The notes under the pieces: generated by a model
The model's database searches: none
Seen by the model: the letters and a program-made list of their open reading frames with translations, nothing else
Told to the model about the DNA's origin: nothing
Position numbers and translations under genes: made by a program
Shown: piece after piece, positions 21,562 to 60,849 of the stretch
How positions within the stretch are numbered: the stretch's first letter is position 1
How the letters are laid out: every line of letters begins with the position of its first letter
Assembly: GCA_964433415.1 (NCBI GenBank)
Contig: CAYSQM010000001.1
Coordinates: 11,468 to 75,467, forward strand
Length of the DNA: 64,000 nucleotides
Origin: an uncultured Pseudomonadota bacterium
Lineage (GTDB): Bacteria; Babelota; Babeliae; Babelales; CAIQNR01
Direction of reading: 5' to 3'

Positions 21562-22320
21562 TTATTCTTTATTCTCTTCTTGATCAAAAGCTTCGCTTGC
21601 TAAACGTTTTTGAGAACTTTGATCATTATGAATAAATTTTCCATGGGCTTTTAATTCAGATAGAATTTTGTATCCATGAGCGCAACCAGGATAAGTGCAT
21701 TTATATGGTTTTGTGTCGCCATGTAATGCAAGAGAGTGTGATTTCAAGGTGGAACTGCAGTTAAATGTCTTATTACAATGAAAACATTCAAAAGGTTTTA
21801 TGCCAGTATGAGAACATAAGTGTATCGTCAAATTAGACTGGCTAGTGTATGATTTATTACAATCAGGATAAGTGCATTTATACGGGGTTTCTTTAGTATG
21901 GACAGGCATATGACATTTAATGTGCTGTCTATAATCACTTGAATAGTCACATTCATTACATTTAAATTTTTCACCCTCATCTTTTTGTGCTCTTTCAATA
22001 GAATTAAAAGCTAAAGAAGCGATATGTGATTTAAACATTCCTCCTGTTTGCGGATTAAAGACTGGATTGGTTAATGGACCAGTCTTTTTATGCGCGTAAT
22101 TTTTAAGAAAGTTGTTAACTGAACCTTTTGTATCATCTTCATTTTTGCAAGTTCTTAAATGAACTTGTAGCTCAGAAGCTTCAGCATAAGTGAATTCACA
22201 CTCAGCGTTATGGCATTTTTTAACATCTTTTAAATTAGTTCTATTGACAGAGGCATCATCTTGTTGACTGCTATATAAACAACTTGTAAATAAAAAGGTA
22301 GTTAATAATATTTTTTTCAT
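21562..22320 (-). CDS. secreted protein with four tandem eukaryote-type C2H2 zinc fingers
   Basis: The ATG at 22320 gives signal peptide MKKILLTTFLFTSCLYSS. Fingers: FKCNECDYSSDYRQHIKCHMPVH, YKCTYPDCNKSYTSQSNLTIHLCSH, FECFHCNKTFNCSSTLKSHSLALH, YKCTYPGCAHGYKILSELKAHGKFIH. TGEKP-like linkers: HTKETPYKC, HTGIKPFEC, HGDTKPYKC. Confidence 0.8.
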   Translation of the reverse strand: MKKILLTTFLFTSCLYSSQQDDASVNRTNLKDVKKCHNAECEFTYAEASELQVHLRTCKNEDDTKGSVNNFLKNYAHKKTGPLTNPVFNPQTGGMFKSHIASLAFNSIERAQKDEGEKFKCNECDYSSDYRQHIKCHMPVHTKETPYKCTYPDCNKSYTSQSNLTIHLCSHTGIKPFECFHCNKTFNCSSTLKSHSLALHGDTKPYKCTYPGCAHGYKILSELKAHGKFIHNDQSSQKRLASEAFDQEENKE

Positions 22321-22476
22321 TTGTTCTCTGTTTTTAATAAATATAAATAATCTCAATGTTTTTAGTATGCGCTAATTGAAATTAACTTCAATTATAATGT
22401 TTGAAATTATTTATATTTATTAAAACAATTATTTTTGAATGAAAAATTTTAAAAATAAAATGAATTAAAAATTAGT

Positions 22477-23067
22477 CTATTCTGAATCATTGACTTGTTT
22501 TTTTACCATTTTTTCTGTTTCAATTTTTTTCTTAGGTTCTTTTATTGAGATGATTTTAATTGATTTAAGTGCCTGGAAATGAATCTCTTTTTCTTCTAGG
22601 GTTTCTCCTTGAATTTTTCCGCAAGTAATAGTTCTGTTTGCTTCAATTAAGTATGTATCAGATTCGCCTTTAGTGGGGGTAAAAGTAACAGCGATATAAT
22701 CACGGCCTTTGAAGGTTTCTAATTTTCCTGGATTTTTCACTTCGATAGAATTTTTAAAATCATCTTTTAAGTGCATTAATTCAATTAAATCGATGTATGT
22801 TTTATTAATAGTTGGATCGATATCGGGAGCTGTAGGACGAGAGTACACAGAAATTTTATTATATTTTCTTGATATGCAAATATTGTGAGCTTCAAATTCA
22901 TTTCCTGATGTATCAAGAACTATTCCATAAAAATTAACATCTGGTTCGCTACCTGTACCATCAATATTAGTATTATTTGTGGTGTCTCCCATATTTATAC
23001 AAAAAATAATGGCAATTAATGTTGAAGCAAGTCTTAACGAATTATTTTTTAAAAATGTTTTTTTCAT
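22477..23067 (-). CDS. secreted hypothetical protein
   Basis: The ATG at 23067 is preceded by GAGGG with 7-nt spacing. Leader MKKTFLKNNSLRLASTLIAIIFCINMG. No motif recognised. Confidence 0.6.
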   Translation of the reverse strand: MKKTFLKNNSLRLASTLIAIIFCINMGDTTNNTNIDGTGSEPDVNFYGIVLDTSGNEFEAHNICISRKYNKISVYSRPTAPDIDPTINKTYIDLIELMHLKDDFKNSIEVKNPGKLETFKGRDYIAVTFTPTKGESDTYLIEANRTITCGKIQGETLEEKEIHFQALKSIKIISIKEPKKKIETEKMVKKQVNDSE

Positions 23068-58268: not shown

Positions 58269-58276
58269 TATATCTT

Positions 58277-59194
58277 TTAAAATCCACAATTTAAAATTAT
58301 AGAGTCAATTAGCCCAGTTGGTGCTTCATCATGATAATATGCAACAAGAGAATTATCATCTTTTTTAACTACTTGAATATGTGGGTAGATTTTTATTTGT
58401 TCTTCTCTGAAATTTATATCAGTTACTTCTGGTAATTGAACATCTGATTTATTTTGTGCATATATAGCTTCATAAATTTCAATAGAAGAACATGAACCAG
58501 CAATGGTTTTTGCTACATTATGTTGAAGTGTAGAGGCTGTTCTTTGTGTATTTATCATTATTATTATATGTCCAAAACTGTTTTGAGAATCTTGATTATC
58601 CTCTATTTGAACTGTTTGACTAGTGTAAGAAACTACTTGTTCCATAATAATAGGCGCATGTTTATAGCGTAGCGCAAAAAGTTCCCTAAATAGTTTGTTG
58701 ATATCTGGATGTTCAAAATATTGAGTACATATTTTTAGAGCCTCATGATAAGGTATGGTAGTGAGTATTAAAGTAATAAAATGTTTTATTATTAAAGTAA
58801 TAATTGTCATATCTATTTTTAGGTTGTAAAGCTGATTTATAAATGTTTTAAATTCATAAATACGATCTATTTCGTTGGTAGCATCATTAAAAAGATCAGC
58901 AATTTTATTCGTACGCTCTGTGTCAGTGGTTAATTTTAACAGTCCAAAAAGGATTGTTAAAATTTTTTGATCTATTTTGCAAGATAAAGAAAATTTTCCC
59001 TCTTCATCTTTATCTTTAGCAGTTTGATAAAGTGCATTCAATGCAGGGATTTTTGTTAATACAGATTTTTCAAGAGTATATTCTATGTTATTAATTAAAA
59101 GTTTAACGGAATCTTCTTTTTCAGCTGCAAAGCAAGTAAAACTTGTTAATAAAAATAGAGAAATAAGAGTTTTGAGTGTTCTATTAGTTATCAT
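58277..59194 (-). CDS. secreted protein, BTB/Skp1-like N-terminal module (paralog of the upstream gene)
   Basis: Signal peptide MITNRTLKTLISLFLLTSFTCFA. VKLLINNIEYTLEKSVLTKIPALNALY...FSLSCKIDQKILTILFGLLKL resembles a BTB/Skp1 core. The C-terminal motif CSSIEIYEAIYAQNK is shared with the 552-aa neighbour. Confidence 0.6.
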   Translation of the reverse strand: MITNRTLKTLISLFLLTSFTCFAAEKEDSVKLLINNIEYTLEKSVLTKIPALNALYQTAKDKDEEGKFSLSCKIDQKILTILFGLLKLTTDTERTNKIADLFNDATNEIDRIYEFKTFINQLYNLKIDMTIITLIIKHFITLILTTIPYHEALKICTQYFEHPDINKLFRELFALRYKHAPIIMEQVVSYTSQTVQIEDNQDSQNSFGHIIIMINTQRTASTLQHNVAKTIAGSCSSIEIYEAIYAQNKSDVQLPEVTDINFREEQIKIYPHIQVVKKDDNSLVAYYHDEAPTGLIDSIILNCGF

Positions 59195-60849
59195 AACAAT
59201 TCTCCTTCTTTTGCTAATTCTTGAATTCCATCAGAAAGTTCTAAAGTAAATGGATTGATTCTATTAGTCGTATCTTCAAGCAGTATTTTTGTTGCTTTAA
59301 CGATGGTTTTTTTTAAGCAATAGGTAAGGCATAAATAAAGTTTTTTAGTTTTTTCTATTGGGCTTGCGTGACTTAGTGTTAATAAATCTTCTAAAAAAGA
59401 TTCTTGAGTTTCATTAAGTTCTTCTAAAGGCTCTGTTGGACTGTTTGTATCTTCTTCTAATTCGTTCATTATAATTTTTGGTTTTTCAAAAGAAACTTTT
59501 GGCTCAGTATAATAGACAAAAAAATTGTCATTTAAACGATCAATAGAAATACGTTTATCTAATGGGTTTTTTTGTTGAGCCTTTATTGCTTTATAAATAT
59601 CTGAAAGAGTGCATTGATTAGCAATAAGAGTGCTTAGATTAGTTAAATAGAGTTCAAGGTTGCCATCATTAACAAATGAAAGAGTTTTTGCTGTTGTTAA
59701 GACAATAGCTGAAGATGAAAGAACTTTGAATATTTTTTTTGTTTTAAGATAAGTTATGGTGATGTTTTTATTAGTTATTATAATAAGAAATTGAGAGCAT
59801 TTAGTTAAGTAAACATTTGTAATAACGTTAGATTGATCGTGAGCTCTATATGATTGTTCAGAAAATGTATTAGTTCTTTTAGAGATAAGATCCATTACAT
59901 TTATTTTATTAGATGAGTAACTTATTAGATAGTTATTATCGCTACTTATATCGATTTTATTTAAAAAACTATAAGGCATAGGTAAAGAAAAAGGAATACG
60001 AGTTATTTGTTTATTCTCAGTTATTTGAGTTACTACTAAAGCATCATCAGATTGCGTAATGAGAAAATGTTTATTTGAGCTAAGAGATGCCTTTTTTATA
60101 GGTAAAAGATGATTTGTGCTATTGCGAGTTAAGGTAAATATATCTTCATATTCAGTTTCATTGATTTGATTAATAGGTTTATTATCTGAAATAACAACAG
60201 AGTCTGAATTAATTGATGAAATGAAAAGTTTTCTTTTTTCAACTAGTAAACTTTGTTTATTTTCTTTTTCTGGTAAATAATTTGCTAGAGTTGTTTCTTT
60301 AATTTTTACTGGTTCGTGAAAATAATAAGTCGCTAATTCTTTTTTTAGTTCTAAACCTAAAGCATTAAAAAATAATGTTTGTTCTTTTTCTTTAATCCAT
60401 TCTAATGCATTTTCTTCATCATAATGGTGAGCAAGTAGAGGGACTAAGTATTTAATAATTTTTACCGAAAGCTTTTGATTGAAAATTTCTATTATTAAGT
60501 ATTCAGTAATTTCTGCTAGATTCCATAAATTATTAAGATCATCAGTAGGATTTTGAGATCCAGTAAAAGTTTTTAATTTTTCATAAAGTTCTTCATTATT
60601 TTTACTTTGTAAAAGATCTAGAATAATAAATAATTTACTGCTATCAAGATTATCAAATACCGATAACAGAGGATTGAAGTATTGTATACCTTTTAGAGCA
60701 GGAATAGCATTGATTTGCTCTTGGGAAAGCATAATAGTTGCATCAGAAAGTTGAATAGGTATTAGTTTACTAGTACAGGCTTGAGCTGTAAAAAATGAAC
60801 CTATACTTAAAAATAGTAGGTAAAAAATTAATTTTTTATTTGTTAACAT
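59191..60849 (-). CDS. secreted protein, BTB/Skp1-like N-terminus plus beta-repeat-like middle region
   Basis: Signal peptide MLTNKKLIFYLLFLSIGSFFTAQA. IPIQLSDATIMLSQEQINAIPALKGI...SSKLFIILDLLQS. Repeated strand-like units HFLITQSDDALVVTQI, NYLISYSSNKINVMDL, QFLIIITNKNITITYL. Motif CTLSDIYKAIKAQQK. Overlaps the downstream paralog by 4 nt. Confidence 0.6.
   Translation of the reverse strand: MLTNKKLIFYLLFLSIGSFFTAQACTSKLIPIQLSDATIMLSQEQINAIPALKGIQYFNPLLSVFDNLDSSKLFIILDLLQSKNNEELYEKLKTFTGSQNPTDDLNNLWNLAEITEYLIIEIFNQKLSVKIIKYLVPLLAHHYDEENALEWIKEKEQTLFFNALGLELKKELATYYFHEPVKIKETTLANYLPEKENKQSLLVEKRKLFISSINSDSVVISDNKPINQINETEYEDIFTLTRNSTNHLLPIKKASLSSNKHFLITQSDDALVVTQITENKQITRIPFSLPMPYSFLNKIDISSDNNYLISYSSNKINVMDLISKRTNTFSEQSYRAHDQSNVITNVYLTKCSQFLIIITNKNITITYLKTKKIFKVLSSSAIVLTTAKTLSFVNDGNLELYLTNLSTLIANQCTLSDIYKAIKAQQKNPLDKRISIDRLNDNFFVYYTEPKVSFEKPKIIMNELEEDTNSPTEPLEELNETQESFLEDLLTLSHASPIEKTKKLYLCLTYCLKKTIVKATKILLEDTTNRINPFTLELSDGIQELAKEGELL

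Follow-up and report, generated by a model that had tools for sequence, protein, structure and literature searches.

The 64-kb stretch of DNA analyzed here (the window) belongs to the chromosome of a Babeliales-like bacterium in the phylum Dependentiae (TM6). Its LeuRS was closest to those of TM6/Babeliales MAGs (57-66% identity; all others at most ~50%), and the source species is uncultured and set apart, with LeuRS no more than 66% identical to that of any representative genome. GC content of the genome is ~32%. Members of Dependentiae are obligate intracellular parasites of protists. A preliminary description of the window had named seven ORFs as eukaryote-like and had assigned a Sec-type leader to each: a C2H2 protein, a C58-like protein, a polylysine protein (polyK), two ankyrin proteins (Ank1 and Ank2) and a BTB-like pair. 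These ORFs are listed in Table 1 together with other leader-bearing ORFs, positive controls and lspA, which is part of the Sec-dependent processing machinery encoded in the window.

Table 1. Features of the window (a slash marks the predicted cleavage site)
Feature	Position	Strand	Evidence
Krüppel-type C2H2 zinc-finger protein, 252 aa	21562..22320	-	leader MKKILLTTFLFTSCLYSS, ~22320-22267
C58-type (YopT/AvrPphB/LegA7-like) cysteine protease with C-terminal helical domain, 526 aa	29520..31100	-	leader MFKLFLFSTLLSLLCNQPLKA/MHG, ~31100-31038; protease residues ~40-300
Lysine-rich protein (polyK), 370 aa, 101 K/R	37911..39023	+	leader MKKQLLIMVICVSGLGDISA/SR, 37911-37970; SP call
Ankyrin-repeat protein Ank1, 175 aa	44999..45526	-	leader MKNIFLQFIIFFTFLSLTSS/EKE, ~45526-45467; SP call
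Ankyrin-repeat protein Ank2, 338 aa	51166..52182	-	leader MNTRKISIVIFFFMSLMISS/KEA, ~52182-52123
ORFan, 305 aa (formerly 'BTB-like')	58277..59194	-	leader MITNRTLKTLISLFLLTSFTCFA/AEK; SP call; strong SD
ORFan, 552 aa (formerly 'BTB-like')	59191..60849	-	leader MLTNKKLIFYLLFLSIGSFFTAQA/CTS; SP call; SD aaatGGAGagttaca
Skp/OmpH periplasmic chaperone	10068..10736	+	Pfam OmpH 5.6e-13; SP call; positive control
SLT_2 lytic transglycosylase	28476..29450	+	Pfam SLT_2 1.2e-77; SP call; positive control
BamA (Omp85, 5 POTRA domains)	39136..41634	-	Pfam POTRA/Omp85; leader MKHKKKINKFILFAFFIVAFPLLHS; positive control
lspA, lipoprotein signal peptidase (SPase II)	54805..55272	+	Pfam Peptidase_A8 7.4e-26
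3' part of 627-aa ORFan, start upstream of window	1..1555	+	full translation (L084) begins with leader NRDKFTLISKVRLIAWTSFFVVGFVFSA/EKD
ORFan, 483 aa	1567..3018	-	SP call; no Pfam match
ORFan, 535 aa	3230..4837	+	SP call; no Pfam match
Lysine-rich ORFan, 336 aa	4962..5972	+	leader MKYIKFLIIAIFGFCFGLDLKA/SQQ; Logan gene call also 336 aa
ORFan, 267 aa	6019..6822	+	SP call; no Pfam match
Two adjacent ORFans, 11429-13267 and 13269-14039	11429..14039	+	SP calls; no Pfam match
ORFan, called 'anchor?'	22477..23067	-	no Pfam match
Two ORFans, 32569-33291 and 33401-34147	32569..34147	+	SP calls; SD motifs; no Pfam match
Small ORFan, leader-bearing	43593..43898	-	SP-type call
Thioredoxin-fold protein, leader-bearing	43923..44522	-	SP-type call; Pfam Thioredoxin 1.5e-9
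Two unknown-family ORFs, 56475-57272 and 57324-58268	56475..58268	+	SP calls; no Pfam match

Pfam matches bore out the labels of the C2H2 protein and both ankyrin proteins. The former scored 38.8 bits against zf-C2H2 (cutoff 25.2) and has, between residues 119 and 231, four CX2-4CX12HX3-5H fingers whose linkers are TKETPYKC, TGIKPFEC and GDTKPYKC. Its nearest non-self homologs were eukaryotic ZNFs (34-40% identity), and an allele, P0168, was 89% identical overall with the same first 24 residues. Ank_2 was matched by Ank1 (2.5e-13, from residue 47) and Ank2 (6e-11). For the remaining four named ORFs the eukaryote-like label is not supported: C58 proteases are a family of bacterial effectors, the supposed BTB-like proteins are ORFans, and polyK, a low-complexity K-rich protein in which a 15-bp tandem array (38597-38722) encodes a KKPKI repeat, belongs to no Pfam family. 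The BTB-like name was dropped, as neither ORF of the pair had a Pfam match at E<=10 and hhalign against verified POZ domains gave a probability of 0.1%. The larger ORF matched only itself among 5.8 billion clusters, and its 4-bp overlap with the downstream ORF suggests an operon; the two are weakly similar in their C-terminal regions only (E 0.029). A hydrophobic stretch within 58277-59194 (residues 125-149) may be a TM helix; the single-sequence AF2 model of this protein was uninformative because its pLDDT was 42.5.

The C58-like protein had no direct Pfam match, and its assignment is indirect, through remote homology and fold. G79, C81, Q146 and H218 were invariant among 163 remote homologs, and Peptidase_C58 was matched by 3 of 24 aligned family members (best E 1.6e-6). 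In the AF2 model (pLDDT 80.8), residues 1-34 were of low confidence and lay outside the fold, and the top PDB match was AvrPphB (1ukf, E 6.6e-4), which has a fold in common with the window protein. The C58 effectors YopT, AvrPphB and HopN1 (T3SS) and LegA7/LegA2 (Dot/Icm T4SS) have a common Cys...His...Asp/Asn arrangement (PMC11423584). Compared by published residues, C61/H205/N220 of LegA7 (PMC11423584) correspond to C81/H218 and a candidate third residue, D235 or N237, in the window protein. In addition, LegA7 has C-terminal ankyrin repeats, as do some members of the window protein's family. However, known C58 effectors are injected and have no Sec leader, whereas the window protein has a leader and a ~20-residue linker. 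Within its family, 101 of 133 scorable members lacked a leader, with the domain starting at about residue 9, and 32 had one, with the domain starting at about residue 55.

Leaders were called with a home-made rule-based test of n-, h- and c-regions, in which cleavage sites are rule-based guesses. All seven named ORFs showed a basic n-region, an uncharged hydrophobic run of 13-21 residues directly followed by charged residues, and small residues at -3/-1 (e.g., DISA/SR, TAQA/CTS, PLKA/MHG and LTSS/EKE). The n-regions and run lengths were MKK and 17 in the C2H2 protein, MFK and 16 in the C58-like protein, MKK and 13 in polyK, MK and 18 in Ank1, MNTRK and 15 in Ank2, MITNRTLK and 16 in 58277-59194, and MLTNKK and 21 in 59191-60849. 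These leaders resemble those of BamA, Skp/OmpH and the SLT_2 transglycosylase, which passed the same test, and all cytoplasmic housekeeping proteins of the window were rejected. Among internal-Met pseudo-N-termini of cytoplasmic proteins the caller fired on 1 of 117; its rate was 3.1% at internal offsets within the seven proteins, and across 75 non-Dependentiae loci it called 14% of ORFs (16% in low-GC loci). In the mature parts, a TM-like segment was present in 58277-59194 only; the other six named ORFs had no second hydrophobic segment.

The possibility that the true starts fall downstream of the hydrophobic segments disagrees with both SD positions and independent gene calls, which gave exactly the same starts on public contigs. 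A GGAG-type SD precedes the leader-including ATG in five of the seven ORFs, i.e., the C58-like protein (aaatGGAGaagtt), polyK (a strong motif, aGAAGGAGaagttt), both 58277-60849 ORFs and Ank2; the motif was weak for Ank1 and the C2H2 protein. No RBS-backed start was found downstream of the hydrophobic segment in any of the seven. Ank1 has a single available start codon, with no alternative within the first 70 codons, and the start of Ank2 was placed at 52182 rather than 52194 because a GGAG motif lies upstream of the ATG at 52182. The Sec-type signal peptides of all seven ORFs are genuine, as the preliminary description had proposed. Elsewhere in the window, two long ORFs, PolA and 4857-5972, had wrong upstream starts; the true start of the latter is ATG 4962, not TTG 4857.

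A leader was present on 24 of the 50 window genes: 20 of 22 accessory ORFs (those without a housekeeping assignment) versus 4 of 28 housekeeping genes (p=5.7e-8). It was also found in 31 of 63 cases in related Dependentiae loci. The leader is the default design of the accessory proteome, being present on about half of the genes and ~90% of the non-housekeeping genes in the window. Signal peptides on accessory and ankyrin proteins are a trait already published for the phylum. In Chromulinavorax destructans, 44% of CDS have one, a share that rises to 78% among ankyrin proteins, and the predicted secretome is enriched in ORFans (Deeg et al. 2019, PMC6561590). These values match those of the window, although that study was genome-wide and used a dedicated predictor whereas ours covers 64 kb with a rule-based caller. 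In Babela massiliensis, of the same phylum, SignalP predicted signal peptides on ankyrin proteins (79 of 126) and on other host-interaction proteins (Pagnier et al. 2015, PMC4378268); C2H2 zinc-finger or C58 protease cargo is not mentioned in the passages searched. Two items are new here: a Krüppel-type C2H2 protein and a C58 protease that each carry a Sec leader.

Since the signal peptides are genuine, the seven proteins would cross the inner membrane through SecYEG and be cleaved by signal peptidase I; for the C2H2 protein, LspA is possibly the processing enzyme instead. Past the periplasm, literature on relatives points to the phylum-core T2SS as the most likely route, with outer-membrane vesicles and surface exposure as additional ones. 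The TM6 core gene set includes T2SS components, with gspD in two copies (PMC4776705), and outer-membrane vesicles are shed by Chromulinavorax (PMC6561590). In Babela, the T2SS is the sole secretion system detected and the proposed exporter of signal-peptide ankyrin proteins into the amoeba cytoplasm (PMC4378268). A similar route, a Sec leader followed by T2SS, is described for Legionella pneumophila (PMC6617341, PMC5478897): eukaryotic-like proteins are among its substrates, of which ProA, at least, gets to the host cytosol. In contrast, most Legionella ankyrin and eukaryote-like effectors use the Dot/Icm T4SS and lack Sec leaders, whereas those of Dependentiae apparently take the Sec route. 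Such export would bring the proteins into direct contact with host cytoplasm, where we infer that the ankyrin proteins, the Krüppel-type protein and the C58 protease may act on host targets. By analogy, our best reading is a Sec step with subsequent release through T2SS or vesicles, and onward export to the host is probable. The two-step route proposed earlier accords with what has been inferred for the phylum; its special link with eukaryote-like proteins is not supported (see below). Against the overall reading, the C2H2 protein, with its 15 cysteines, would need to remain reduced and zinc-bound after an oxidising periplasm, and SD motifs are weak for this protein and Ank1.

Alternatively, proteins with real leaders could be retained in the periplasm, tethered to the membrane or surface (as lipoproteins or by signal anchors), or have outer-membrane vesicles, such as those of Chromulinavorax, as their sole way into the host, with possible roles in self-protection, adhesion or envelope remodelling. 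A possible lipobox (FTSC) in the C2H2 leader and lspA within the window are consistent with tethering, but a Cys at position 14 is unusually early for a lipobox. Likewise, 58277-59194 has its internal TM-like stretch, and the N-termini of 22477-23067 (a basic n-region and hydrophobic core, either leader or signal anchor) and 43923-44522 have no clear cleavage site; however, a second hydrophobic segment is absent in six of the seven. A self-protection role of an ankyrin protein in Bdellovibrio is cited in the reference list of PMC6561590 (reference 30). Against retention, a periplasmic substrate is implausible for DNA-binding Krüppel-type fingers or a C58 protease, and the known targets of C58 relatives are host proteins (PMC11423584). 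We regard retention as unlikely.

Export of a default accessory proteome was also weighed against the view that the leader marks a special host-derived gene class, in which acquisition of eukaryotic domains was coupled to leader fusion. Such a class would fit the contrast between the named ORFs (7/7) and all other window genes (17/43, p=0.0035), as well as over-representation of ankyrin proteins in the Chromulinavorax secretome (PMC6561590). However, among accessory ORFs the named ones did not differ from the others (7/7 versus 13/15, Fisher p=1.0), which argues against the coupling of eukaryote-likeness and leader originally suggested. Moreover, eukaryote-type domains were verified in just three of the seven, for which the excess over background was 3/3 versus 22/50 (an earlier tally, p=0.08), and 47 of 126 Babela ankyrin proteins are without a signal peptide (PMC4378268). 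We consider this view very improbable. Least credible of all is that the hydrophobic N-termini are artefacts of cytoplasmic proteins, produced by AT-rich chance (I, L, F, K and N codons) or mis-chosen starts: low GC, the two weak SD motifs and the wrong starts of PolA and 4857-5972 would allow it, but control rates of 1-3% at internal positions and 16% in low-GC non-Dependentiae loci, rejection of every cytoplasmic housekeeping protein, the start-codon evidence and retention of the leader in the C2H2 allele all speak against it.

Among the other leader-bearing ORFs, 56475-57272 contains LAALPGC and is possibly a lipoprotein.

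All seven ORFs that the preliminary description had singled out as eukaryote-like (a C2H2 protein, a C58-like protein, a polylysine protein, two ankyrin proteins and a BTB-like pair) were accepted by a calibrated rule-based caller, and the N-terminal Sec-type signal peptides (leaders) claimed for them are real. To be accepted, an N-terminus had to show a basic n-region and 10 or more uncharged residues in a row, this run holding an 8-residue core with a Kyte-Doolittle (KD) mean of at least 2.0 that starts inside the first 18 residues; the hydrophobic core could not exceed 20 residues, and the C-region needed either a lipobox or small residues at positions -3 and -1. 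In the seven proteins, n-regions had a net charge of +1 to +2, uncharged runs spanned 13-21 residues and were directly followed by charged residues, and the 8-residue cores had KD values of 2.4-3.7. Small residues at -3/-1 were present in every case, the cleavage positions themselves being rule-based guesses. The same pattern was found in BamA, Skp/OmpH and the SLT_2 transglycosylase, and no cytoplasmic housekeeping protein of the window was accepted, the apparent exception, PolA, being an over-extended ORF. In controls, the caller accepted 1 of 117 pseudo-N-termini placed at internal Met residues, 3.1% of offsets when every internal position of the seven proteins was taken, and 14.3% of 896 ORFs from 75 loci outside Dependentiae (16% for those with low GC). 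Therefore, the leaders occur far above chance, and AT-rich composition does not account for them. Among the seven, a second TM-like segment was present only in the smaller ORF of the pair (residues 125-149), so the other proteins look soluble and exported.

An artefact, in which AT-rich composition or misassigned starts had produced the leaders, was ruled out by these controls, Shine-Dalgarno (SD) motifs, independent gene calls and a C2H2 allele. In the genes for the C58-like, polylysine and second ankyrin (Ank2) proteins and in both ORFs of the pair, the ATG that includes the leader is preceded at a distance of 5-9 nt by a GGAG-type SD motif; for Ank2 it fits 52182, the start first proposed, and not 52194. 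SD motifs were weak for the first ankyrin protein (Ank1) and the C2H2 protein; the first 70 codons of Ank1 offered no alternative start. True starts downstream of the hydrophobic segments would have removed the leaders, and no ribosome-binding motif was found at such candidate starts in any of the seven ORFs. Independent gene calls on public contigs, retrieved by exact-sequence look-up, had identical starts for all of them. The C2H2 allele, which is 89% identical, fully kept the first 24 residues and all finger ligands, and its substitutions occurred mainly at residues 81-132. In PolA, translation probably does not include the hydrophobic start, since residue 33 is the first of the 5′-3′ exonuclease domain and an ATG further along, at codon 26, fits this boundary and is the likelier start.

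Features of the window discussed in the text (window coordinates; strand in brackets where given)
Coordinates	Feature	N-terminus	Remarks
29-1555	3′ part of a 627-aa protein	Leader	True N-terminus seen in the locus with the full protein (L084)
4857-5972	Second lysine-rich protein (EEERREKKSKKKLEKKAKAKEKK)	Leader MKYIKFLIIAIFGFCFGLDLKA	Longest-ORF TTG 4857 wrong, true ATG 4962; resembles the polylysine protein
7300-10014	Type-II P-type cation ATPase (Cation_ATPase_N/C)	No cleavable leader	Polytopic membrane protein
10068-10736	Skp/OmpH	Leader	Positive control
16731-19547	PolA	Hydrophobic start MHLLYLIIFLSV	5′ end over-extended
21562-22320	C2H2 protein	Leader	252 aa
23302-23988	Bax-inhibitor-1 family	No cleavable leader	Polytopic membrane protein
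28206-28293 (-)	tRNA gene
28476-29450	SLT_2 transglycosylase	Leader	Positive control
29520-31100	C58-like protein	Leader	526 aa
31200-31273 (-)	tRNA gene
31419-31507 (-)	tRNA gene
31954-32037 (+)	tRNA gene
34158-34793	Conserved 205-211-aa protein		No Pfam family
37911-39023	Polylysine protein	Leader	370 aa
38597-38722	15-bp tandem array		Encodes KKPKI repeat
39136-41634	BamA	Leader	Positive control
43923-44522	Thioredoxin fold	Leader or anchor	Degenerate motif WCTTY, second cysteine lost
44522-44842	Canonical cytoplasmic thioredoxin		Motif WCGPC
44999-45526	Ankyrin protein Ank1	Leader	175 aa
51166-52182	Ankyrin protein Ank2	Leader	338 aa
58277-59194	BTB-like pair, smaller ORF	Leader	305 aa
59191-60849	BTB-like pair, larger ORF	Leader	552 aa
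1-21000, 22477-23067, 32569-34147, 43593-43898, 56475-58268	At least 13 further Pfam-less ORFs	Sec-type leaders

The window contains a set of housekeeping genes (AlaRS, PolA, PriA-like, CysRS, LeuRS, PheT, MurB, GlmU, FtsI, BamA, Skp, LspA and PgpA), and its GC content is about 32% throughout. LeuRS was 57-66% identical to its counterparts in five TM6, Babeliales or unclassified MAGs, including candidate division TM6 bacterium RIFCSPHIGHO2_12_FULL_36_22 and Candidatus Babeliales bacterium AMX-MBFR-12, and at most about 50% identical to those of other phyla. This affinity places the source, as judged by LeuRS, within the phylum Dependentiae (TM6) as an uncultured member, with 66% LeuRS identity at most to the nearest representative genome. 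Proteins identical to those encoded here are also present in NCBI and Logan assemblies, on contigs of up to 158 kb. LeuRS affinity, GC content and the frequency of leaders all agree with this membership. A conserved protein gene at 34158-34793 adjoins LeuRS in four related Dependentiae loci (L002-L006) and lies about 11 kb from it in the window, which indicates a rearrangement or an insertion of accessory genes between the two.

After two start corrections, leaders were assigned to 24 of the 50 genes in the window; FtsI and FtsL, with signal anchors, are additional to these. Nearly all accessory ORFs, i.e., those not assigned a housekeeping role, bear a leader (20/22), compared to 4 of 28 housekeeping genes (Fisher p=5.7e-8), and these four all encode envelope proteins. 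Within the accessory set, the named ORFs showed no excess (7/7 vs 13/15 for the others, Fisher p=1.0). The idea that leaders are tied specifically to eukaryote-like domains, for which an enrichment test had been proposed, was thus rejected for the window; for the three Pfam-verified eukaryote-type ORFs alone, the comparison of 3/3 against a background that then stood at 22/50 did not reach significance (p=0.08). The density of leaders in related Dependentiae loci was the same as in the window (31 of 63 ORFs). Bax-inhibitor-1 and type-II P-type cation ATPases are families best known from eukaryotes. Both are represented here by polytopic proteins that lack a cleavable leader, and the claim that every eukaryote-like ORF carries one therefore holds only for soluble proteins. 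The further leader-bearing ORFs without a Pfam family include large ORFans of 483-627 aa. An adjacent pair of thioredoxin-fold genes was also detected, and only one of its members retains both cysteines of the motif.

The leader pattern has already been described for Dependentiae and is ordinary in this phylum. In Chromulinavorax destructans, signal peptides were reported on 44% of CDS, which is close to the share found here (24 of 50), and on 78% of ankyrin proteins; ORFans are over-represented in its predicted secretome, and early in infection it sheds putative outer-membrane vesicles (Deeg et al. 2019, PMC6561590). T2SS components, with two copies of gspD, are among the TM6 core genes (Yeoh et al. 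2016, PMC4776705), and in the Babela massiliensis genome, T2SS is reported to be the sole secretion system, whatever the type (Pagnier et al., PMC4378268). A precedent for T2SS substrates reaching the host cytosol is given in a passage on Legionella (PMC5478897). The preliminary description had proposed a two-step route, and in light of these reports its mechanism is the one accepted for the phylum; for the genome studied here it is carried over from relatives. No T2SS genes were found within the 64-kb window, and look-ups of the flanks at its two edges yielded only short contigs that extended it by less than 2 kb. By analogy, the route with the best support is Sec followed by T2SS and/or vesicles. 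The main implication is that a further uncultured lineage confirms that host-interaction proteins of Dependentiae use the general secretory pathway and not an injection system.

Among the seven domain labels, three hold, a fourth (C58) holds with a different meaning, and BTB fails. Both ankyrin labels were upheld by Pfam Ank_2 (50.8 bits for Ank1 and 43.2 bits for Ank2, cutoff 27.3), and repeats begin approximately 25 residues past the leader in each protein. The C2H2 label proved equally sound: the protein scored 38.8 bits against Pfam zf-C2H2 (cutoff 25.2) and contained four CX2-4CX12HX3-5H fingers with linkers of the Krüppel type between them (TKETPYKC, TGIKPFEC and GDTKPYKC), which follow a TGEKP-like pattern, T/G-x-x-K/T-P-Y/F-x-C. 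Its best non-self matches, with 34-40% identity across the finger region, were zinc-finger proteins of frogs, fungi and insects, and on these sequence grounds the protein is eukaryote-like. Its leader contains LFTSC, with Cys at position 14 and F at -3; compared to the lipobox [LVI][ASTVI][GAS]C, this Cys occurs earlier than usual. In an unrelated metagenome, a protein on a 2226-bp ENA contig (P0015) carries a leader (MKKQINITLIALFTILTCEYGA) together with C2H2 fingers whose linkers read HTGEKPYKC, so the architecture in the window is not unique and may be a recurring one. No description of a Sec-leader Krüppel-type zinc-finger protein in Dependentiae was found in the literature searched. The protein is a candidate exported DNA-binding factor, and a concrete candidate for a bacterial factor acting on host DNA. 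With 15 cysteines, it would need to pass through the oxidising periplasm and yet still bind zinc.

Direct membership of the C58-like ORF in its family was not supported. The ORF did not match Pfam PF03543 even at E<=10, neither phmmer nor a profile found a match among PDB sequences, and a word-index homolog search returned only the protein itself; an exhaustive HMMER representative search (163 relatives), transitive Pfam matches and a fold search were the only positive results. Across 24 aligned sequences, G79, C81, Q146 and H218 were invariant, and the candidate third catalytic residue, D235 or N237, was not. Three of these sequences matched Peptidase_C58 (best E 1.6e-6), and two contained ankyrin repeats. 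In an alignment-based AlphaFold (AF2) model (pLDDT 80.8), residues 1-34 formed a low-confidence helix and linker outside the folded domain. The top Foldseek match of this model in PDB was AvrPphB (1ukf; E 6.6e-4, prob 1.0, TM 0.55 on target), with the C58-type domains of MCF and lymphostatin ranking next. The transitive matches and the predicted papain-like fold thus argue that the C58 label is correct as a superfamily assignment. C58, however, comprises bacterial effector proteases, such as YopT, AvrPphB, HopN1 and Legionella LegA7/LegA2 (PMC11423584), and the domain is bacterial, not eukaryotic.

Leaders are not uniformly distributed in this family. N-termini could be scored for 133 members, 32 leader-bearing and 101 leader-less, and on a neighbour-joining tree of the domain, leader status required 25 parsimony changes vs a shuffled mean of 29 (minimum 24). 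The median start of the protease domain was residue 9 in leader-less and 54.5 in leader-bearing members, i.e., about 45 extra N-terminal residues. With such a scattered distribution and shifted domain start, the leader behaves as an add-on addressing module and not as a family trait. It is tempting to regard the leader-less members as T3SS/T4SS substrates by analogy with the literature on LegA7, YopT and AvrPphB. As a family found both with and without a Sec leader, it offers a natural experiment for studying the switch of effectors from one secretion route to another. A broader and rather speculative idea, which we consider improbable as it stands, is that Sec/T2SS of Dependentiae is a general effector-delivery system, in which leaders were repeatedly added to T3SS/T4SS-type effector modules and to host-derived genes, a Krüppel-type C2H2 array becoming a Sec-exported nucleomodulin on protist chromatin. 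The C58 and zinc-finger points would change current understanding only if shown experimentally. The C58-like ORF is flanked by four tRNA genes, a class of genes that often serves for integration, and the protease gene may therefore be located in a small island.

For the pair described as BTB-like, BTB/POZ identity found no support and the label was dropped. There was no match to Pfam BTB/Skp1_POZ at E<=10, and hhalign of the N-terminal profile, a low-power comparison with a two-sequence query, against a POZ profile of Skp1, ElonginC, BCL6, PLZF and KEAP1 (all confirmed as POZ by Pfam) gave prob 0.1% and E 0.56. In a word-index search of 5.8 billion clusters, the larger ORF matched only itself, and single-sequence AF2 was uninformative (pLDDT 42.5). 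Given their 4-bp overlap (ATGA), co-translation of the two ORFans is probable, and they share only a faint C-terminal similarity (IAGSCSSIEIYEAIYAQNK vs IANQCTLSDIYKAIKAQQKN, E 0.029). The polylysine protein is a low-complexity lysine-rich protein, whose repeat array (6.5-8.4 copies, 83-92% matches) could be a site of copy-number variation.
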